Shown here: positions 31,789 through 62,783 of the stretch, piece after piece
How positions within the stretch are numbered: position 1 is the stretch's first letter
Layout of the letters: each line of letters opens with the position of its first letter
Source: a virus
Virus record (IMG/VR): IMGVR_UViG_3300002092_001594
Location: 32,001 to 96,000 of that record
DNA: 64,000 nucleotides
Direction: 5' to 3' (one strand)
The notes under the pieces: model-generated
What the model saw: only the letters and a program-made list of their open reading frames with translations
The model's database searches: none
What the model was told of the DNA's origin: nothing
Translations under genes and position numbers: made by a program

Positions 31789-32208
31789 TTAAATAGTAAC
31801 TATTTTGTGGATTTTTGTAGAAAGTTTTCTTAGATCATCGCCTTGAGTAAGCAATACAGTGTTTCTGTAATTTTGCCATTCTACTCTAAAGGACGTGTCT
31901 AAGATTCCCTCATTTAGGGATTTAATTAGAAGGTTTAAACTATTAATCGTGTATAACGTATTGGTTTCCTTCTTTCTATGTAAAAGTATCGTATTTGGAA
32001 GTACTCTTGTATTAGTACTTTGAACTTCAATATTGTAAGTGCACAAAAACTCATCAGACTCCTCAGATTCCAATACAAATATCTTATCGTACATGATAAC
32101 ATATTCGGATTTAATCGTATCTAAAACCTCTTCCAACTTGCTTTTAGGAGAGAATGTGCAAAATAACTTATTCTTCAATTGATCTTGTGTTAACTGTATA
32201 AATTCCAT
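31789..32208 (-). CDS. conserved-type hypothetical phage protein
   Basis: 139-aa ORF; NKLFCTF and HRKKETNTLYTINSLN motifs. Confidence 0.75.
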   Translation of the reverse strand: MEFIQLTQDQLKNKLFCTFSPKSKLEEVLDTIKSEYVIMYDKIFVLESEESDEFLCTYNIEVQSTNTRVLPNTILLHRKKETNTLYTINSLNLLIKSLNEGILDTSFRVEWQNYRNTVLLTQGDDLRKLSTKIHKIVTI

Positions 32209-46055: not shown

Positions 46056-46098
46056 TTTATTCTATGTTTTATATAAATATCTACTAATGTAAAACTTA

Positions 46099-46466: not shown

Positions 46467-48230
46467 TTAACCGAATGTTACTCCAGTTGGTAAGATGTTA
46501 AAGTCTAATTGGATGTATTCAGCTGTTCTAGTTGGTTGTAAGTAAATAGCACCTACAAGTAAGTTTCTATCAATTACATCTGGTGTGTTATTAGTTTCAT
46601 CCATTACTACTCTGAATGCATACAAACCTTGTCTTTGTTGTACATATTCTAAGTAAGGATTAACTTGAGATGTAAATTTATTTCTAGTTACTGTTGTATT
46701 TTGTTCGAATACTAATGTTTGTGCAATTTGACCAATGTAACTCTTAAGTGCAATTAATAAACGTCTTACATTTACTCTATCTAAAGATGAAGCTTTAGCT
46801 TGTAATGTTTTTTGACCGTATACTACTGTACCTTGACCTGGGAATACTGCAATTGGATTAACTTTAGAACTATATAAAGTATTTCTCTGGTTAACTGTCA
46901 ATCTGATTTCAGGTTGAATTACTGTTGGTAAACCTCCTCTATTTAAACCAGCTGGTGCGAACCATTCTGCTGACACTTTATCATTGTACTCATATACCCC
47001 TGGAATTACAGTTGAAGCAGGTACGAAATTTAATCTACCAGTCTCAGTAGATCTTGTTTGTACCCATGGGTAATAAGTAGCTCCGTATGAATTATCGTAA
47101 GTTTGAGCTGCTTGAGTTACTGAATTAATTGTTTGATTATATCCAACTAAATCTACTACTGCAATTGCATCACCGCGATTTTGTACTGTTGATAATAAAG
47201 CACTAACTTGACTTGTTGCATTTTGAGTAGAGATGCCAGGTGCATAAATTGAATTATAAGCATATGCATCTTTATTAGCTAATAAGTTAATAGCTGTATC
47301 GTAATCACTAGCAAATACACCTTGAATATTTGTAGTAGGATCGCTTGCTACAGAAGGTATTGTAGGAATTTGTTCGAATAAATTTAATGGAGCAGTTCCA
47401 AAAGAACCGTATAAAGGACCAGTTGCGTTACCAAATGAACCGTTTGCAGATCCACTACCGTTTAAGGGAATAGAAGCTGTATATTGTGCTTGAGCTCTAC
47501 CTTGTGGATTTAAATAATTCGGTGTCGGTGTAAATACGTTAGAAATTCTAATGTAGTTAGACAAATTAGGATAGCTACCTGTAACTTGGAAGTAAGCTTG
47601 ACCGCTTTCGTCATATTTTACAGTTTGTGCTTGATCTCCAATTACGTAAGCAATATAATTATTTTGATTTGGATCTAAAGATAAGTTAGTCCAAGTTTCT
47701 AATACTGATTGATTTTGAGTATAGTCATTACCTTGTCTAATTAACAAAGTAAAATATCCAGAAGCGCTATCAGCTTGTGTAATTTGCCATCTAATATTAT
47801 TTGAAGAACCAGAAGGTAAAATTCCGTTTACTGCTCCTGTAGCACCTTGGTTATTATTCATTACATTACCTACTGATATTGTTTCGATTTCAAAAGATGC
47901 AGATCCTAGACTATTAACTACAGTAGAAGAAGTAGCAGCAGTATAAGAACCGCTTGTTACTCTTGTTACTAACAGAGAAGTACCTCCTTGTTGAAAGTAA
48001 TTATAAGCTGCTTGAGAAGTTAAATATTCTTGTGTATTGCCTCCAGAAATGAAAGTAGTACCGAACTTAGCTGAATACTCAGAATAAGAAGTTACTAACG
48101 TAGGAGTATCTTTTCTACCAACTACTGTAGGGCCGATTAATGCTGCTCCTACCGTGATAGGGCCTGTTGTTATTTGAGATTGATCGTTTTCTCTTAGGAA
48201 AACGCCTGGACTAATTAATGCTTCTGCCAT
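46467..48230 (-). CDS. contractile tail sheath protein
   Basis: SPGVFLREND, WFAPAGLNRG, YGQKTL, DRVNVRRLL, FEQN, PTRTAEYI. Confidence 0.96.
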   Translation of the reverse strand: MAEALISPGVFLRENDQSQITTGPITVGAALIGPTVVGRKDTPTLVTSYSEYSAKFGTTFISGGNTQEYLTSQAAYNYFQQGGTSLLVTRVTSGSYTAATSSTVVNSLGSASFEIETISVGNVMNNNQGATGAVNGILPSGSSNNIRWQITQADSASGYFTLLIRQGNDYTQNQSVLETWTNLSLDPNQNNYIAYVIGDQAQTVKYDESGQAYFQVTGSYPNLSNYIRISNVFTPTPNYLNPQGRAQAQYTASIPLNGSGSANGSFGNATGPLYGSFGTAPLNLFEQIPTIPSVASDPTTNIQGVFASDYDTAINLLANKDAYAYNSIYAPGISTQNATSQVSALLSTVQNRGDAIAVVDLVGYNQTINSVTQAAQTYDNSYGATYYPWVQTRSTETGRLNFVPASTVIPGVYEYNDKVSAEWFAPAGLNRGGLPTVIQPEIRLTVNQRNTLYSSKVNPIAVFPGQGTVVYGQKTLQAKASSLDRVNVRRLLIALKSYIGQIAQTLVFEQNTTVTRNKFTSQVNPYLEYVQQRQGLYAFRVVMDETNNTPDVIDRNLLVGAIYLQPTRTAEYIQLDFNILPTGVTFG

Positions 48231-51185: not shown

Positions 51186-52229
51186 TTATATGAGTTTTTT
51201 AGTGTTTATGTTGATTTTAGTACTATTTTTAAAGCTATTATACTGTTCTAGGATAGTATCCCACTTCTCTTCTGAGATTACTGAGGACTGCTTTCTGTAT
51301 TCTTCGGCAAATAGACTCCATGTTGAGGTATTTGACTTTATTAAGAATTTACAAAAACTTAAAGCAAATAAATCAACCATATTACATATTGTAAGCTCTT
51401 TCTCATCAGTATCGATAATATCTCCAGATAGAGTAAGGAGTTCTTTAATCTTACCTATTATAGTTTCTTTAAGAATAATATTCTTACCGTATTTTTCGAC
51501 GTAATATGAAATTAAGTAAAAAGGTAAATCTGTGCTAATGTAGAACTTTTGATTTGGATTTATTTTTAAAAAATTATCAATAATATTAAAATAAACCTCA
51601 TCATTGATATAAGGATACCCTTCGTGATTGTATATATAAATTTTACTCCTAAAATCAAGGTAGGATTCTTTTATGTTAGACGATTCAATGTCTATTTTAT
51701 CTTTGTCGTATGCAACGCCAGAGCCTCTTCTAAGATGTATACCTATTGCATCCTTAGTAATATCTTTTAAATAGTCTTCTACTAAGTAGTTTTTTATTTT
51801 TATATGGGATAATGGACGTACTTTATTTTGATACTCAGTCTGTAGTGTGTTTAGAAAGGTAGAAGTGAGAAGTTCGTCCCTTTCATTAAATCCGCTAAAA
51901 TCAAAAGTGTAGGTCAAGTGGTTACAGTCTGCTAATTGCTTTGCAGCATACATATGATGGCAAAAGTCTTCTCGTACTTCCTTAATGTCAGGAATATTAA
52001 TAACTTTTTGATCTATGTTTTGTACTAAGGATGTGTGAGGTAGAAAAATAAAGTCATTGCTAACTTCAGGCCATTCTGTTCGATCCATCAATATACGATG
52101 ACCTTTTCCTAATGTTTCTCTTAAATAATATGCTATCTCCCAATTCACAACCCTATTACCGAAACTTGTATCTAAATTATGCCACACGAATCGTTTGTTA
52201 ATCCACATTAGCGATTTTTCAGAATCCAT
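51186..52229 (-). CDS. fucosyltransferase-like glycosyltransferase (GT-B; NodZ/GT11/GT23-like)
   Basis: FGNR, IGIHLRRG, FYISTD, DLFALSFC...STWS motifs. Confidence 0.75.
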   Translation of the reverse strand: MDSEKSLMWINKRFVWHNLDTSFGNRVVNWEIAYYLRETLGKGHRILMDRTEWPEVSNDFIFLPHTSLVQNIDQKVINIPDIKEVREDFCHHMYAAKQLADCNHLTYTFDFSGFNERDELLTSTFLNTLQTEYQNKVRPLSHIKIKNYLVEDYLKDITKDAIGIHLRRGSGVAYDKDKIDIESSNIKESYLDFRSKIYIYNHEGYPYINDEVYFNIIDNFLKINPNQKFYISTDLPFYLISYYVEKYGKNIILKETIIGKIKELLTLSGDIIDTDEKELTICNMVDLFALSFCKFLIKSNTSTWSLFAEEYRKQSSVISEEKWDTILEQYNSFKNSTKININTKKLI

Positions 52230-52384
52230 TAGCTTTGTGATGCCTTTAGTAACGTAATAAATTTGCTTATGATATTGTTTGATTGTGCCTTGTGCTTATC
52301 ACTTAAAGGCTTCATTACTCTTTCTAAAGTAATTGCTTGATCTACCTTTTTATATACTATCTTATTTAATGTAGTCTCTGACAT
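52229..52384 (-). CDS. small hypothetical protein (51 aa, missing from the ORF track)
   Basis: MSETTLNKIVYKKVDQ...FITLLKASQS*; fills the gap with a TAATG overlap onto the next gene. Confidence 0.65.
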   Translation of the reverse strand: MSETTLNKIVYKKVDQAITLERVMKPLSDKHKAQSNNIISKFITLLKASQS

Positions 52385-52391
52385 GTTATTA

Positions 52392-54242
52392 TTATTTATT
52401 GTGAACTAAAAGTCCGTTTGCAAAGAAGTTATGATTATCTGCTACCGTAAAGATATACATTGTAGTTGGATTTGTATGTAATAAGATGCTGCTAAATTCT
52501 GAAATTTCTACAATACTTGTTGCTTGTCCGGTTCTTGTATATAATGAATTACCTACTTCTAGTTTATTACCTTCTGTAGTTGAGCCGTCACGTGATGCTA
52601 ATGTAAGGTCTGCTTTATAGTATGGATGGTCTAAAGTTGAAGTAATTGATTTACTGTCTGCAGTATAGAGATTAATAATATTATCTTTAGTAGTTTGAAC
52701 AGGATTAGAAACTGCTTTAGGTTCAACTTCTCTAGTTGTTTCATTAAATGAAGCTACTACATCTCCTTCAACAATATCTTCAATGTTTTTAAAAGAACCA
52801 TCAGCCATTTCAATTTGAGTTCCTGCTGCAAAGCAATTATGAGCTATTGTAAAGAAAGTACTCATACTAAATCCGTGAATATTCTTAGTTGCTAATATAA
52901 AGTTATCTTCTTCCTCAAGGTTTAATGCATAAACAGTTTGAGGCTCTTCAAAAATTACTAATTCAATTGAATTTACAGTAACTAGAGTACCATTACTTGA
53001 AAGAATTGAGTCTCCGGTCTTAATATCTAAAACTCTTCGGTATTTTATAGTATTTGTTTCTTTATTATATACTAATAATCTCGTCTCACCTCCTATTACT
53101 ATCTCTTCACCATCTCCAAAATTTATAGAGGTCATTTCGTTAGTATAAGTTAAGCCGCTATAGATATCAACTAAAGTTGAAATAGTTTCATGTGATCCTT
53201 CTGGTAATACGTTACCGCTTATTAACCAGTCTCTAATAATAGCCTCGTCATCTGTGTTTGGAGCACTTTCTATAGAGTAAGACTTAAATTTATCGCCTAT
53301 CTTTACGTCTTTAATTTGAATAGTGTTACCTTCTTCGTCTAAAATTTCAGTATCTCCAATAAACCCATGTCTAATATTTTTAACATGGTTTGTTGCAAAC
53401 TCATAATAATGTTTATTAGATACTTTATTAACTAATGATTTATCGTCGAATCCAACTTCAGTCGGCAAATCAAGAACGGCTAAAATTTCATAGTCAGCAA
53501 CAGTACATAAATCTAGATTAGGTCCGTATACGATTTGAAATGAACGAACTGAACTAACCTTATTATTATTACTTTCAACTGCAGCTGGTGAGTAGTGGTA
53601 TTGTTGTAATACTAAATTGTGATCATTTATTTCTTCTAAGAAAGAATTAAGTCTATTCTGTATTGGTAGTTCGGATTGGCCTATTTTATAAAAGCCGTGT
53701 GATTTATGTTCTTCAATTGTTGACTTTACAATAACATCCGGAATATTACCTTGATTTAATAAGTCAATATCAAGTGTATTGTAGTCTCCATTCAAGTTAG
53801 ATGAATGGTAAAAATTAACAGTAGATTGAGAATCGCCTGCATCAGCAAATAACTTTAATAAGTTTAATGTGCCTTTAGCGTATTCAGAATCCAATATTGA
53901 TGTCTCATCGTACGCCATTCTTAAAACAAAGGTACTACCGTTATCGTCGATTGCTGGAGGAAAGATACTATCTTCAGGAGTCAAGATTGGATTTAGTGTA
54001 ATAGAAGGAGCGCTTTTCTCTAGGGATTCTCTTAGTGATTCAATAATAGGGTACTGAATACTATGCTTATACACCACGGTCAATTCCGTAATTGCATTAT
54101 TGTTTAATACGTTAAAAAATTCAGACCAATCGAATACAGATTTTTGAGATTCAATAATACCAGTATCAGTATTTATCTCAATTAAGCGCAAATCGTCGTT
54201 TTGGTCTCTAACAAAATCAGCCGAAAAAAAAGTTCCTTTCAT
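52392..54242 (-). CDS. circularly permuted ATP-grasp-like domain fused to two tandem Hint domains
   Basis: aa 1-292: ADF...LIEINT, PDVIVK, LVLQQY, VRSF; aa 293-469: GFIGDT...IAHN; aa 470-615: CFAAGT...TLDHP...HNFFANGLLVHN; terminal K. Confidence 0.75.
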   Translation of the reverse strand: MKGTFFSADFVRDQNDDLRLIEINTDTGIIESQKSVFDWSEFFNVLNNNAITELTVVYKHSIQYPIIESLRESLEKSAPSITLNPILTPEDSIFPPAIDDNGSTFVLRMAYDETSILDSEYAKGTLNLLKLFADAGDSQSTVNFYHSSNLNGDYNTLDIDLLNQGNIPDVIVKSTIEEHKSHGFYKIGQSELPIQNRLNSFLEEINDHNLVLQQYHYSPAAVESNNNKVSSVRSFQIVYGPNLDLCTVADYEILAVLDLPTEVGFDDKSLVNKVSNKHYYEFATNHVKNIRHGFIGDTEILDEEGNTIQIKDVKIGDKFKSYSIESAPNTDDEAIIRDWLISGNVLPEGSHETISTLVDIYSGLTYTNEMTSINFGDGEEIVIGGETRLLVYNKETNTIKYRRVLDIKTGDSILSSNGTLVTVNSIELVIFEEPQTVYALNLEEEDNFILATKNIHGFSMSTFFTIAHNCFAAGTQIEMADGSFKNIEDIVEGDVVASFNETTREVEPKAVSNPVQTTKDNIINLYTADSKSITSTLDHPYYKADLTLASRDGSTTEGNKLEVGNSLYTRTGQATSIVEISEFSSILLHTNPTTMYIFTVADNHNFFANGLLVHNK

Positions 54243-54258
54243 AAAATTACCAGTTTTA

Positions 54259-54266
54259 TATAAATA
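54259..54266 (-). promoter_or_regulatory. putative late promoter (TATTTATA) for the ATP-grasp/Hint gene
   Basis: Motif 17 nt upstream of ATG at 54242. Confidence 0.65.
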
Positions 54267-54309
54267 TCTACTAAATTCAGATATTCAAGTCAATTATGTA
54301 TATATATGT

Positions 54310-55383
54310 CTATACGATCTTCTTTGTTATATCTACTACGTCGTGTAAATTGTGATATACCTGCGGCTCAATCCATATCTTCTTAGCTTCTTCAATAAAA
54401 TCACTGTATTCAGGATGTATTGGATCCCAGACTTTAACGAATTCGTATTGATTACAGTTAAATGTTCCCCAGTTATTAATTTTAATGAATAAAACAGATG
54501 CTTTTTTACCGAATATTCCTTTAATTAAGTCAGCAAACATCCTCATTTCTTTATAATTAGCTTGTTGAACTACAAATGACGTTCTTACCTCTTCTAAACT
54601 CGGAATTGTACTAATAAATTTAAGGTTTTTGATTAAATTATCCCAATTACCGTTTAATCTAGTTTTATTTTCATAGGTTTCTTTAGTTGCAGCGTCAATA
54701 CTGATCTCACAGGTCTTTACATACTTGTGAATATTCGGCATAGTGTTCCACATCTTCTCGTTCCACATAGATGCATTAGTATGCAAGTGAATACTCTTAA
54801 GTTTTGGGTATTCATCCTTGTTAAAGTTTTGTAAGAAAGCTCTGAATGTGTTAGAAACGAAGGGATCTCCAGATGCAGTGAAGTATAGTGTCTTAGCATC
54901 CTTTGAAAACAGTCTTTTCATCTCTGTCATAGTGTCTTCTATCTCTATTAAATTTTCTGGAGTAGCTTTATAGGTCTCTTTTCTACAAGAAGGACATTTA
55001 TAATTACAGCTCTTGTCGAAATTATGTTCTATTTTTTCAGGACCTACTTCCATATAAGGGTCTTGATTAATAAACTTCTCTTTAAACTTATTTGGTAGGT
55101 CGTCCTTGTGGTAAATTGGGCCTTTAGGATCTACTTCATTAAACTTCAATAGATATGATAGGTATGGACATTGAGTAGCATCACAATGTCTGTATGACCC
55201 ATCCATTACCGATCTTCTTGACTCTAAAGAATCTTCTGAGTTCCAAATCTCACTTAAAGGTTGGTTTTCAGGATTTCTTTTAATTAGCCACTCAGGAATA
55301 CAGAGGAAATATTGATTTTCTTCATGTATGTGTAGAAATCTAAAAGGTGCTGTACACACATAGTTTTTTAAATCAACTTTCAT
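54310..55383 (-). CDS. radical SAM protein with N-terminal SPASM/twitch-like Cys domain (paralogue 2)
   Basis: CNYKCPSC, SGDPF, HTNAS, SIDA; N-terminal C..PF...WNS...C....CP. Confidence 0.88.
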   Translation of the reverse strand: MKVDLKNYVCTAPFRFLHIHEENQYFLCIPEWLIKRNPENQPLSEIWNSEDSLESRRSVMDGSYRHCDATQCPYLSYLLKFNEVDPKGPIYHKDDLPNKFKEKFINQDPYMEVGPEKIEHNFDKSCNYKCPSCRKETYKATPENLIEIEDTMTEMKRLFSKDAKTLYFTASGDPFVSNTFRAFLQNFNKDEYPKLKSIHLHTNASMWNEKMWNTMPNIHKYVKTCEISIDAATKETYENKTRLNGNWDNLIKNLKFISTIPSLEEVRTSFVVQQANYKEMRMFADLIKGIFGKKASVLFIKINNWGTFNCNQYEFVKVWDPIHPEYSDFIEEAKKIWIEPQVYHNLHDVVDITKKIV

Positions 55384-56457
55384 TTATATAATCTCCTTTT
55401 TTATTTCAATAAATTCGTACATGTTATGAAACACTTGTGTATCTCTCCAAACTTTATTAAACTCTTTTTTAAAAAGATCGTGTTCAGGATGATTAACATC
55501 CCATACTTTCTTAAGTTTAAATTCTCCTTCGGTAAAAGTATCCCAGTTGTTTATCTTACCAAAAAACACATGAACTTTTTTGCCAAAGATTGATTTCATT
55601 AGCTTCAAAAATATTTCCATTTCACCATAATTACTATCTTGCACTACAAAAGAAGTCTTAATATACTTTAATACAGGTATCTTTGCTATGAAACGTAAGT
55701 TATCAATTAAGTTATCCCAATTACCTCCTAAACGTGTCTTATTTTCATAAGTGTCTCTGGTACCTGCATCTATACTTATCTCACAGCTCTTAACATACGG
55801 CCAAACATTTTTCATGCTATCCCACATCTTTTCGTTCCACATTGACGCATTAGTGTGTAAGTGTATGTTCTTTAACTTTGGATACTTCTTAGGGTCAAAC
55901 GTTCGTAAAAAATCTCTAAAGCCAACTGATACGAATGGATCACCACTTCCAGTAATAAACATTGTGGATAAATTCTTTGCGAACTTAGTTTCTATTTCTA
56001 AAAGGGTAGCTTTTACTCTTTCAATACCTTTTGAGTTTTCAACAATTAAGTCAACTCGACATGATGGACATTTATAATTACAAGTTCTATCAAATGCAAA
56101 TTGGATAACAGAAGGACCAACATTCATCTCTCCAGTTTCGATATTATAGTTATCGGTTATATAGCTTGGTGTATCCTTTCTTTCAACTATTGGATTTACA
56201 TTATTTAATTTCTTATCGTTTATTAATTCTGATAAAAAAGGACATTGCTTTTTATCACAATACTTGTAAGAGCCATCGTGAATTGATTTTCTTATTTCTT
56301 TAGCTTCCTCAGAATTCCAAACTTCATCTAATGGCTTTTTCATATCTGGAGATATGTTGTTGGGTAACCAGGTGGGACAACACATGAAGATAGCCTGATT
56401 GTGAATTTCAATATTTACAAACGGAGCTGTGCATATGTAATTTTTTAAATCTCTCAT
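55384..56457 (-). CDS. radical SAM protein with N-terminal SPASM/twitch-like Cys domain (paralogue 1)
   Basis: CNYKCPSC, GSGDPF, HTNAS, SIDAG; N-terminal C..PF...CC...WNS...C....CP. Confidence 0.9.
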   Translation of the reverse strand: MRDLKNYICTAPFVNIEIHNQAIFMCCPTWLPNNISPDMKKPLDEVWNSEEAKEIRKSIHDGSYKYCDKKQCPFLSELINDKKLNNVNPIVERKDTPSYITDNYNIETGEMNVGPSVIQFAFDRTCNYKCPSCRVDLIVENSKGIERVKATLLEIETKFAKNLSTMFITGSGDPFVSVGFRDFLRTFDPKKYPKLKNIHLHTNASMWNEKMWDSMKNVWPYVKSCEISIDAGTRDTYENKTRLGGNWDNLIDNLRFIAKIPVLKYIKTSFVVQDSNYGEMEIFLKLMKSIFGKKVHVFFGKINNWDTFTEGEFKLKKVWDVNHPEHDLFKKEFNKVWRDTQVFHNMYEFIEIKKEII

Positions 56458-60111: not shown

Positions 60112-60128
60112 ACAGAAATAAGTTGCAA

Positions 60129-60674
60129 ATGAATGATAAATGGAATAAATTTATAGAAACTCCATCATTAAGGTTTCGTTATCAAGTACCTAAGTTTACT
60201 CCTAGTATTTATAGGGAGTATAGAGGTGAAATTTTCACCACTTTTCATTCAGAAGAGCATCCTGTAATGAAATATCTTCCTTTTAACAAAGAGGAATTAA
60301 ACATTCATAATAAATTCTCTAAATCTTACAAAGGTGTTTTAAGAGGCCTCCATTACGATAATAAAACGTGGAAGTTAATTCAAGCGCTTGCAGGAGATTT
60401 GTACTTAGTAGTTCTTGATATGAGACGAGATTCTTTTACCTATGGAGAATGGGAATCATTTATTTTAACTGAAAAGAGTAGAGATCAAATCTTAGTACCG
60501 CCCGGTTTTGCTAATGGTCATTACGCATTAACTGACTGTATTTTTCATTATAACTTATTTTATAAAGGTGAGTGTGTTGATTCAGTTGATCACGAAATAG
60601 TTAAATGGAATGATCCTGAGTTTCAAATAGAGTGGCCTACTGATAATCCAATTTTACAGAAAAAAGATAAATGA
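60129..60674 (+). CDS. rfbC: NDP-4-keto-6-deoxyhexose 3,5-epimerase (RmlC family)
   Basis: RGEIF, S.S.KGVLRGLH, KLI....G..Y.VVLDMR..S.TYG.W, VPPGFANG, WNDP...I.WP. Confidence 0.9.
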   Translation: MNDKWNKFIETPSLRFRYQVPKFTPSIYREYRGEIFTTFHSEEHPVMKYLPFNKEELNIHNKFSKSYKGVLRGLHYDNKTWKLIQALAGDLYLVVLDMRRDSFTYGEWESFILTEKSRDQILVPPGFANGHYALTDCIFHYNLFYKGECVDSVDHEIVKWNDPEFQIEWPTDNPILQKKDK

Positions 60675-61252
60675 TAGATACATTAATTACATTTGAAAGA
60701 AAAATAGCTGATCTGTGGGAAGCAGGTAAGATAAGAGGTCCTATTCACTTAAGCGGCGGTAATGAAAGGGAATTAGTAGAAATTTTCGGGAAAGTAAAAA
60801 GTGGAGATTGGGTATTTTCGACTTGGAGATCTCATTATCATGCATTACTTAAAGGTGTAGATCCTTCTTGGCTAGAGAAAGAAATATTGGATGGAAAATC
60901 CATTACGATTGTAAATAAAGAACATAAATTTTATTCATCAGCAATAGTTGGCGGTATTATTCCGATTGCTGTTGGTGTTGCAATGCAGCTTAAAGCCGAT
61001 AATAGTACTGATAAAGTTTGGTGTTTTATAGGAGATATGGCATTTGAGACAGGGATTTTTTATGAAATGCATAAATACGCTACAAATTATAATTTACCAA
61101 TTCAGTTTGTAGTAGAAGATAACGGTGTATCTACAAACACACCAACATTTGAAACTTGGAATAGTAAGAAACCAATACCAGATAATGTAATTTATTATAA
61201 ATACGAAAAACAGTGGCCGCACTACGGAACAGGAAAATGGATAATGTTTTAA
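60671..61252 (+). CDS. ThDP-dependent dehydrogenase E1 alpha-like subunit
   Basis: GPIHLS.G.E, WRSHYHAL, AIVGG, FIGD, VVEDN. Confidence 0.88.
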   Translation: MIDTLITFERKIADLWEAGKIRGPIHLSGGNERELVEIFGKVKSGDWVFSTWRSHYHALLKGVDPSWLEKEILDGKSITIVNKEHKFYSSAIVGGIIPIAVGVAMQLKADNSTDKVWCFIGDMAFETGIFYEMHKYATNYNLPIQFVVEDNGVSTNTPTFETWNSKKPIPDNVIYYKYEKQWPHYGTGKWIMF

Positions 61253-62247
61253 TAACAGGGATAACAGGAATGGTGGGTTCTCATTTAACCGACTTTCTTT
61301 TAAAGAATACAGATTGGAAAATTTATGGCTTTTTAAGATGGAATGACAATTTAGAAAACATAGAGCACTTATCTAAAGTAATTAACGAGGGAGATAGAGT
61401 TAAACTTGTATATGGCGACTTGACAGATCTATCTTCTTTAATAAAGGCTGTAGAGGTATCAAAACCAAAGTATGTATTTCATTTAGCTGGCCAGTCTTAT
61501 CCCCAAGCAAGCTTTATATCGCCGGTAGAGACTTTACAGGCAAATATTATAGGTACTACTAATGTACTTGAAGCATTAAAAAATTCAGAATATAAAAATG
61601 CAAATATACATGTTTGTTCTTCTAGTGAGATATTTGGTAGAGTACCGAAAGAAAAGCTACCTATAAATGAAGATTGTTCAATACATCCTGCATCTCCGTA
61701 TGCTATTTCAAAGTGTGGTGTTGATTTATTAGGCAGACATTATGCTCAAGCTTATGGAATGACTATAATGACGACACGTATGTTTACCCACACCGGTCCT
61801 AGACGTGGTGATGTATTTCATGAATCGACTTTTGCAAAGCAAATAGCAATGATTGAAGCAGGTATACAAGAACCTAAAATTTATGTTGGTAATTTACAAT
61901 CTTTAAGAACATATGCTGATGTAAGAGATGCTGTTAGAGCTTACTACATGCTCTTAACTATCAATCCTACTTCAGGTGAATACTATAATATTGGTGGTAG
62001 CTTTACTTGTACTGTTGAGGACACTTTACAATTTTTAATTAATGCATCTACTGCAACCAATATAGAAGTTATTACAGATAAAGGAAGGCTTAGACCTATA
62101 GATGCTGATTTACAAATACCAGATACTACTAAATTTAGAGCCCATACAGGATGGAAGCCAGAAATACCTTATGAAACTACGATGCTTGATCTATTAAATC
62201 ATTGGAGAAAGAAAGTAAATAGTGGACGAACATTTTTAAAACGATGA
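61237..62247 (+). CDS. gmd: GDP-mannose 4,6-dehydratase-like SDR
   Basis: LITGITGMVGSHL, HLAGQS, SSSEIFG, SPYAISK, FTHTGPRRG, GNL. Confidence 0.85.
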   Translation: MDNVLITGITGMVGSHLTDFLLKNTDWKIYGFLRWNDNLENIEHLSKVINEGDRVKLVYGDLTDLSSLIKAVEVSKPKYVFHLAGQSYPQASFISPVETLQANIIGTTNVLEALKNSEYKNANIHVCSSSEIFGRVPKEKLPINEDCSIHPASPYAISKCGVDLLGRHYAQAYGMTIMTTRMFTHTGPRRGDVFHESTFAKQIAMIEAGIQEPKIYVGNLQSLRTYADVRDAVRAYYMLLTINPTSGEYYNIGGSFTCTVEDTLQFLINASTATNIEVITDKGRLRPIDADLQIPDTTKFRAHTGWKPEIPYETTMLDLLNHWRKKVNSGRTFLKR

Positions 62248-62783
62248 ATACACCTCAACATACACCCTACAAAGATGCTTTAACAAAAGCAATGGGTAAA
62301 TTAGGACAATACGAATACTCTACTTTTATAGGACAGCAAATACTGTATCCCGGTAATCCTATGAGTACTACTTTAGGAGATGTTCCTAAATCAAAAATGA
62401 TAGAAGTACCTGTAATGGAAGAATCTCAAATGGGTATGAGTCTAGGTCTTGCTATGGCAGGTAGGTTTGTTATTACTTTCTATCCTAGATGGGACTTTCT
62501 TATATGTGCAACAAACCAGTTAGTTAATCACGTTGATAAATTAGGATTAATGGGTAATTGGAATGTTGATATGATTATTAGGGTTGGAAAAGGAAGTACT
62601 AATCCCTTAGATCCTGGACATCAGCATAAAGGAAATTATTTCAACGAATTTAAATCTATGTGCCCTAATATAGAATTTCATGACTGTAGATCTCCACAAG
62701 ATGTAGAAAAAGCTTATGAATATGCTATTCAAGGAGGTATAAACCTTATTGTTGAGTATCCGGAGTTTTATTATTCCAACTAA
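62244..62783 (+). CDS. ThDP-dependent E1 beta/transketolase pyrimidine-binding domain
   Basis: PVMEESQMG...GLA, DFL..A.NQLVN, GHQH; lacks the usual C-terminal domain. Confidence 0.85.
   Translation: MNTPQHTPYKDALTKAMGKLGQYEYSTFIGQQILYPGNPMSTTLGDVPKSKMIEVPVMEESQMGMSLGLAMAGRFVITFYPRWDFLICATNQLVNHVDKLGLMGNWNVDMIIRVGKGSTNPLDPGHQHKGNYFNEFKSMCPNIEFHDCRSPQDVEKAYEYAIQGGINLIVEYPEFYYSN

Follow-up and report, generated by a model that had tools for sequence, protein, structure and literature searches.

What does a phage protein do that joins a ligase-like domain to two Hint domains placed back to back? The question is raised by a single open reading frame (ORF) in a 64,000-nucleotide stretch of viral DNA, positions 32,001 to 96,000 of the IMG/VR record IMGVR_UViG_3300002092_001594 (the window, to whose numbering all coordinates refer). 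The minus-strand ORF encodes 616 residues and a stop, arranged as an ATP-grasp domain, a probable, degenerate Hint domain (Hint1), a complete Hint domain (Hint2) and a final lysine. The account that we favour, with reasonable but far from full confidence, is that it encodes the precursor of a self-processing ligase that carries an exchangeable, self-removing BIL cassette at its C terminus and depends on an obligate micro-protein subunit.

The ORF had been singled out by an earlier reading made from the letters of the DNA and their translation (the sequence-only reading), and that description, of one frame with three modules and their motifs, is confirmed as a whole. Every motif quoted for the ATP-grasp part (D9-F10...L20-I-E22-I-N24-T25, V170-I-V-K173, L211-Q-Q-Y214 and V232-R233-S-F235) and for the Hint part (G293, H468-N469-C470, T536-L-D-H539 and H614-N615-K616-stop) is present in the translation. 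The start codon is sound, because the homologues all open with the same M-K/R-G/A-T motif.

From the order of its motifs, the N-terminal domain had been proposed to be an ATP-grasp ligase of the circularly permuted type, and structure prediction and fold searches bear this out. The AlphaFold2 model of residues 1–292, built on a 53-sequence alignment, has a pLDDT of 95 and a pTM of 0.90, and every significant Foldseek match in the PDB (E = 1.6e-5 to ~1e-3) is to a ligase of the circularly permuted ATP-grasp type, namely YjfC, YgiC, glutathione and homoglutathione synthetases, GspS, trypanothione synthetase and Cp1B. When the model was compared with 48,161 representative chains by VIA-align, eleven permuted ATP-grasp entries ranked first (Z 9.5–7.0); these alignments span model residues 1–288 and cover 189–232 residues at a root-mean-square deviation of 4.5–5.8 Å (for example, model residues 1–288 against GspS 310–609). 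Classical, unpermuted ATP-grasp enzymes (TTLL, LysX/ArgX, RimK, DcsG and Ddl) come next, at Z 5–6, and align only over about residues 50–289, as would be expected if a permutation has put the ExN strands first.

Conservation points the same way. An hhalign alignment to Escherichia coli YgiC, whose score is weak with a single sequence as template, is collinear (5–235 against 97–354) and pairs D9 with D102, E22 and N24 with E115 and N117 of the YgiC segment 'LLENNADTP', and VLQQYH with IVQQFH. D9, E22, N24, D118 and R233 are invariant throughout the family, and R108, D112 and K173 almost so, in relatives as distant as 21% identity, with K173 conserved at a level of at least 90% across 53 sequences. 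By analogy with GspS structures, D9, E22 and N24 would be the metal ligands. The domain therefore has both the permuted strand order, with the ExN-bearing strands first, and the conserved Asp/Glu-x-Asn triad and phosphate-binding Lys that define permuted ATP-grasp enzymes. Profile and structure libraries gave little more: no PHROG model matches residues 1–292, the best match among the BFVD viral structures is no better than E 0.04, and the ESM Atlas returns only weak leads for this domain, to ATP-grasp and GshA clusters. As modelled, residues 1–292 are a minimal permuted ATP-grasp domain with an intact metal site, belonging to the class by fold and not, at the level of sequence, to Pfam GSP_synth (PF03738). 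By analogy, the protein is probably an ATP-dependent carboxylate–amine ligase of the GspS/YgiC/GSS class. Carboxylate–amine ligation is the natural guess because YgiC and YjfC are peptide–spermidine ligases, which activate the C-terminal carboxylate of a peptide and add the amine (Pederick et al. 2023, cited in PMC12568646).

The two Hint domains that follow are asymmetric in the way that the sequence-only reading had described: Hint1 begins with Gly, lacks the TxxH of block B and ends in His-Asn, whereas Hint2 begins with Cys, carries TLDH and ends in His-Asn, Lys and the stop. Pfam PT-HINT is the best model for Hint2 (57.1 bits against a cut-off of 27.7), which also scores 47.2 bits against Intein_splicing (cut-off 35.8) and lies above the curated cut-offs of the NCBIfam models intein_Nterm and intein_Cterm (TIGR01445 and TIGR01443). 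It has the Cys at position 1, block-B TxxH, block F and terminal His-Asn of BIL-type Hint domains, and its C470, T536/H539, H604 and H614-N615 are invariant in 31 homologues. Among solved structures, the nearest is 6y75, BIL2 of Tetrahymena BUBL (E 1e-13, TM-score 0.86–0.89). By its sequence, Hint2 is BIL-like and not a canonical class 1 intein, because Lys616 stands at its +1 position and the stop codon comes next. Nor do the Hints resemble Hedgehog/Hog autoprocessing domains, as both end in His-Asn with only the Lys behind them. The closest solved relatives of Hint2 are described as cleaving or ligating without a +1 nucleophile in PMC8616854 and in references 36–37 of PMC4031507.

Hint1 has decayed, and its homology to Hint domains is supported by more sensitive methods only. 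It aligns to Hint2 by hhalign with a probability of 87% (E 4e-6), and the 125 collinear columns place G293 against Cys1 and leave TLDH in a gap; it matches Pfam Intein_splicing at E 1.4e-5 (25.4 bits, under the cut-off of 35.8); its family profile matches the MJ0781 and Pho RadA inteins (E 1.5e-5 and 1e-4, respectively); and the region is all-beta in the full-length model. Cys1 and the block-B TxxH are gone, leaving the terminal His-Asn as the sole catalytic remnant, and this pair is nearly invariant across the superfamily, in relatives down to 20–25% identity. Hint1 also has a conserved insertion of its own, which Hint2 lacks, at about residues 325–365 (window ~53148–53270), with the pattern A-P-N-T-D-D ... 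W ... G-x-x-L-P-x-G-S. Several residues of this insertion are nearly invariant, and it may form a functional surface specific to the core.

How widespread is this arrangement, and which part of it is conserved? A protein search over 1.84 billion representative proteins returned 258 clusters (at the 50% identity level) with E ≤1e-3, 101 of them with E ≤1e-30, and all matches begin at query residue 1. A word-indexed search gave 346 clusters at 90% identity, all unnamed or labelled 'hypothetical'. In IMG/VR, we found 31 loci of a near clade and 332 stretches with a relative from a distant clade, more than 360 stretches over both; the distant-clade counts given here refer to 80 loci (L034–L113). 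The core is absent from 50,697 deposited phage records searched by tblastn with near-clade and distant-clade members, where the only matches were of intein type, to Hint2, and it is not known from any cultured phage. Sequence comparison identifies the conserved unit as ATP-grasp plus Hint1, found across hundreds of uncultured viral contigs. One distant-clade gene (L036) lies on a 5-kb contig binned as a giant-virus metagenome-assembled genome (its name contains GVMAG), which may be a binning error or a sign that the family ranges over more hosts.

The core always ends in His-Asn, at about residue 450–480. What comes after this first His-Asn, a comparison that the sequence-only reading had proposed, turns out to be a variable cassette: 1–10 residues (for example 'HNK'), a six-Cys tail of 26–33 residues, zero to three BIL Hints, a Vint-type Hint (P0112 and P0122; 50–53 bits against a cut-off of 27, without a terminal His-Asn) or, in P0263, the self-cleaving chaperone domain Peptidase_S74 (29.1 bits against a cut-off of 22). 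Core and cassette can also have separate histories. Identity to the query over ATP-grasp, Hint1 and Hint2 is 88, 83 and 44% in P0004 and 58, 48 and 78% in P0025. P0002 is 98% identical through residue 471, with about ten differences, and then falls to ~40% identity in Hint2, which places the exchange breakpoint at the N469/C470 junction. By these comparisons, Hint2 is a swappable C-terminal cassette. That three classes of self-removing module converge on one position is our main argument that a processed C terminus is part of how the protein works.

The sequence-only reading had laid weight on the Asn-Cys junction shared by the two Hints. It is real in this protein (H468-N469-C470) but does not hold as a feature of the family. 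In 42 of the 166 members for which a rough pattern parser located a Hint after the core, His-Asn and Cys are directly adjacent; the others have 1–8 residues in between, such as LGS, AP or LIGGS. The zero-spacer junction is confined to the subclade of the query, and because spacers of 1–8 residues are found outside it, the shared bond is, as far as these alignments indicate, a local state and not a design principle. The HN-spacer-Cys arrangement of relatives, with AP, SP and GP among the spacers, had raised the idea of a diketopiperazine or small cyclic peptide, which we dropped for this protein, whose spacer is zero.

The conserved unit also extends beyond the protein itself. The interpretation given in the earlier reading is supported in part, for the permuted ATP-grasp domain and the two asymmetric Hints, while cleavage at N469/C470 and the coupling of a thioester to an outside nucleophile would be predictions. 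It missed a downstream micro-protein, here a 51-codon ORF with Y11-K12 that begins 8 nt past the stop; its relatives share a C-terminal K-x-H-S/L motif. In the near clade, an ORF of 44–53 codons starts 2–21 nt past the stop in 22 of 22 non-redundant loci, with a consensus of Y-K near the N terminus and the ending NFI-x-Y-x-K-x-K-H-S. In the distant clade, an ORF of 36–52 codons follows in 78 of 80 loci, most of them ending K-H-L-S/G, and one of the two exceptions has almost no downstream DNA. The TAA of the micro-protein overlaps the ATG of the next gene (51186–52229, 347 residues, no Pfam or PHROG match) as TAATG (52227–52231). This spacing suggests translational coupling of three consecutive genes, those for the ATP-grasp-Hint protein, the micro-protein and the 347-residue protein.

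Structure prediction supports binding of the micro-protein to the core. When residues 1–469 were modelled in complex with the micro-protein, the score was 0.84, and the best of three controls had 0.01. The same level is attained by 58 of 80 solved complexes, as against 2 of 110 mismatched pairs, but these counts apply only roughly to the present run, which used our own alignments. The runs share at least 90% of contacts, and the pLDDT of the partner is 81–84. The predicted interface bridges both domains. A helix of the peptide lies on the ATP-grasp strands at residues 8–12, 18–20 and 228–238, contacting residues 8, 10, 12, 18 and 20 and the even residues of 228–238, on the face of the sheet opposite D9 and R233, while the Y11-K12 strand pairs with Hint1 residues 425–436. 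In the model, the micro-protein looks like a structural subunit rather than an active-site substrate.

These observations lead us to propose the following scheme. The working unit would be the ATP-grasp domain together with a Hint that retains only its C-terminal His-Asn machinery, held together by the 51-residue micro-protein; the complete BIL Hint behind Asn469 would be an exchangeable, self-removing cassette. After translation, Cys470 would form a thioester at the N469–C470 bond, Asn469 would cyclise, or both would occur. Because N469 and C470 are directly joined, cyclisation of Asn469 by Hint1 and an N–S acyl shift by Hint2 would attack one carbonyl, and either route would cut the same bond. 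The products would be a core of ~52 kDa ending in Asn469, or in Asn-Lys if the BIL splices, and a free 16-kDa Hint2. We found no paper on an ATP-grasp–Hint fusion, and no described protein of this architecture in the literature or family libraries searched, in line with what the sequence-only reading had supposed.

Several points weigh against this scheme. In residues 1–292, Pfam and NCBIfam detect nothing beyond chance level, even at E 10, and a search of the virus record with Pfam GSP_synth (PF03738) gave no match. The VIA Z values of 8–9.5 are only middling on the tool's own calibration, and Ser7 occupies the place aligned with an Arg of the GspS family (R100 in YgiC). The modelled site of the micro-protein lies away from the ATP-grasp active site and gives no clue to a substrate. 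Asn cyclisation would be the only route open to Hint1, which has neither Cys1 nor the block-B His. Finally, cleavage, ATP turnover and expression of the protein are themselves predictions from sequence.

What else might such a protein do? One alternative, which we regard as unlikely, is a conjugation of the BUBL kind, in which a thioester at Cys470 would be resolved by the amine of a lysine (K616, or one in the micro-protein, a virion protein or a host protein), so that the core becomes attached through Asn469. The close structural match of Hint2 to BIL2 is what recommends it, since BIL2, according to PMC8616854, makes an isopeptide bond between a Lys ε-amine and a C terminus without ATP, attaching a ubiquitin-like domain in Tetrahymena. 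A lone terminal Lys, present in 97 of the 166 parsed Hint-bearing members, would fit, although AT-rich codon usage also favours a C-terminal Lys, and so would the late-type upstream element shared with the tail-tube gene (see below). However, Hint2 is freely exchanged, and members that have no Hint, or S74 in its place, would make no thioester and keep the same core, so the thioester is not essential to the function of the family.

A second alternative, quite unlikely in our estimate, is a scaffold of the kind seen for peptides that are made by the ribosome and modified after translation (RiPPs): the core would tailor the peptide behind its His-Asn and then free it by Asn cyclisation, and in this protein a Hint would have replaced the peptide, with the role lost or changed. 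The idea comes from the short-tail distant-clade loci, 66 of 70 of which encode a tail of 26–33 residues with exactly six Cys, often rich in Trp, and from potential tailoring enzymes encoded nearby. Homologues of 2OG-Fe(II) oxygenases lie near the gene in 79 of 80 distant-clade loci (several in these) and 30 of 31 near-clade loci, radical SAM homologues in 25 of 80 and 18 of 31, respectively, and a tryptophan halogenase (Pfam E 6e-109) in 39 of the 80. Such genes are common in the variable regions of marine myoviruses, however, and the loci are phylogenetically related, so we treat their co-occurrence as a lead and not as evidence for a pathway; the association of the halogenase with Trp-bearing tails is likewise kept only as a lead, as it is confounded by relatedness. 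A six-Cys tail could equally be a metal-binding module, and neither the protein in the window nor the members that end in 'HNK' or have 4–8 residues after the core contain a peptide to free. The six-Cys tails follow the pattern C-W-C-P-W-x-Y-C-G-x-W-C...C-P-x-C...K-L.

That both Hints are inert structural relics, and the uncut 616-residue protein an enzyme or virion component, is very unlikely, for although Hint1 lacks Cys1 and TxxH and neither Asn is followed by a +1 nucleophile, the catalytic blocks of Hint2 are complete and invariant in 31 homologues, the core His-Asn is nearly invariant at 21% identity, and self-cleaving modules of three unrelated classes have come to occupy one position.

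Returning to the self-processing ligase, a bolder extension can be drawn, which we put forward as doubtful. The ATP-grasp–Hint1 core and its micro-protein might be a phage system not recognised before, an enzyme that bears its own product or activating group at its C terminus and sets it loose when the asparagine cyclises. For most relatives the product would be a tailored, Trp-rich peptide of ~30 residues with six Cys, a natural product of ribosomal origin with the enzyme as its 'leader' and the halogenase, 2OG oxygenase and radical SAM enzymes doing the tailoring; in the lineage of the window, the BIL cassette would turn that bond into a thioester for ligation.

The genome around the gene is that of an uncultured marine T4-like myovirus; the window belongs to a 115-kb IMG/VR record with an estimated completeness of 66%. 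The ORF sits in a run of co-directional genes, with a tail sheath (46467–48230), the tail tube and a T4-type baseplate protein downstream, and the closest cultured relative of the sheath is that of a Flavobacterium phage (52% identity). The features of the locus are collected in Table 1.

Table 1. Window coordinates of the ATP-grasp-Hint gene, its parts and its flanking elements
Feature	Coordinates	Strand	Basis and remarks
Whole ORF	52392..54242	−	ATP-grasp, Hint1, Hint2, Lys; full-length AlphaFold2 model, pLDDT 83
ATP-grasp domain, circularly permuted (residues 1–292)	53367..54242	−	AlphaFold2, Foldseek, VIA-align, hhalign to E. coli YgiC, conservation
Hint1, degenerate (residues 293–469)	52836..53366	−	Position 1 is Gly, TxxH block missing, H468-N469 at the end; hhalign, Pfam, family profile
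Codons of N469 and C470, where self-cleavage is predicted and the breakpoint of Hint2 cassette exchange lies	52833..52838	−	Sequence and homologue comparison
Hint2, complete BIL-type mini-Hint (residues 470–615)	52398..52835	−	C470, T536/H539, H604, H614-N615
K616, sole residue after Hint2	52395..52397	−	
Micro-protein gene (51 residues)	52232..52384	−	Start 8 nt past the ATP-grasp-Hint stop
Upstream element TTAGTAGATATTTATATAAAAC, 22 nt, late-promoter-like	54253..54274	−	Identical copy at 46066–46087, before the tail-tube gene

Identical copies of the 22-nt element TTAGTAGATATTTATATAAAAC stand immediately 5′ of the ATP-grasp-Hint gene and of the tail-tube gene, which suggests a candidate late promoter of the phage; late co-expression of the two genes would fit this identity. 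Similar TATTTATA boxes precede several further minus-strand genes. Across the whole window TATTTATA is not enriched (18 found against 14.3 expected), so that only two things about it are suggestive: it stands ahead of genes, and the 22 nt match those at the tail-tube gene exactly. A virion-fibre reading, raised by this late-type element and by the S74 cassettes of some relatives, was ranked low, the ATP-grasp catalytic triad being invariant.

Around the ORF lies an island of tailoring genes, comprising two radical SAM paralogues, a GT25 glycosyltransferase, an FkbM methyltransferase, a carbamoyltransferase, 2OG-Fe(II)/PhyH oxygenases and a plus-strand sugar-nucleotide block. The radical SAM paralogues, of 357 residues each, abut one another directly upstream of the ATP-grasp-Hint gene (54310–56457). 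The plus-strand block (60123–62783), the only one in that part of the window, contains an RmlC-like epimerase gene, a split ThDP-dependent E1/transketolase-like pair and a GDP-mannose-4,6-dehydratase-like gene, and is probably a modified-sugar pathway. Carbamoyltransferase, APS kinase, glycosyltransferase/FkbM and SET-domain genes recur in the islands of relatives; the APS-kinase-like gene is found repeatedly around the family, as is a SET-domain protein, a putative protein lysine methyltransferase (for example L027:10040–10510). Most distant-clade loci also have a conserved ORF of ~95 residues, without a Pfam match, 28–123 nt upstream.

The building blocks of this system are well known, and their combination is undescribed in the sources that we searched: a minimal permuted ATP-grasp domain, a Hint reduced to what would be an asparagine lyase, an obligate micro-protein and a slot for three kinds of self-cleaving module. 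It offers a natural case in which Hint domains serve as C-terminal cassettes that can be exchanged and would remove themselves, as well as an ATP-grasp scaffold of very small size. The system is abundant, and provides a direct and inexpensive way to learn about function in the 'tailoring islands' of marine myoviruses, which are poorly understood. Should peptide release or thioester ligation prove true, it would represent a new viral route to modified peptides or protein conjugates.

Finally, the parts can be set against systems that are already known. With YgiC and YjfC, the synthetase half of GspS and trypanothione synthetase, the phage domain shares its fold and permutation, an N-terminal D...ExN metal motif and the QQ(F/Y)H hinge motif. 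It differs from them in being shorter (292 residues against ~380), in having Ser for the aligned Arg and in falling outside Pfam GSP_synth and, unlike them, it is joined to Hint domains and has a micro-protein partner. Eukaryotic glutathione synthetase (2hgs, 5oeu and 3kak) and the fungal E-64 ligase Cp1B (9cjn) give the top VIA scores (Z 9.5–7.9 over residues 1–288) and have the same permutation, but they are stand-alone enzymes of 450–490 residues with 9–12% identity, and their lid and substrate domains are absent from the phage protein. Like Hint2, to which they are ~30% identical with TM-scores of 0.84–0.89, BIL2 of Tetrahymena BUBL (6y75/6tmm) and the Clostridium thermocellum BIL (2lwy) have Cys1, the block-B His and a terminal His-Asn without a Cys, Ser or Thr at +1; unlike them, Hint2 has a lone Lys as its C-flank and a degenerate Hint ending in Asn as its N-flank, and is one of several interchangeable cassettes. 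The placement of the Hint recalls the pretoxin-HINT domains of polymorphic toxins, which precede and release a hypervariable C-terminal module. In the phage protein, however, there is no toxin domain, what varies is another Hint, a six-Cys tail or S74, and the N terminus is an enzyme in place of a secretion or filament region.

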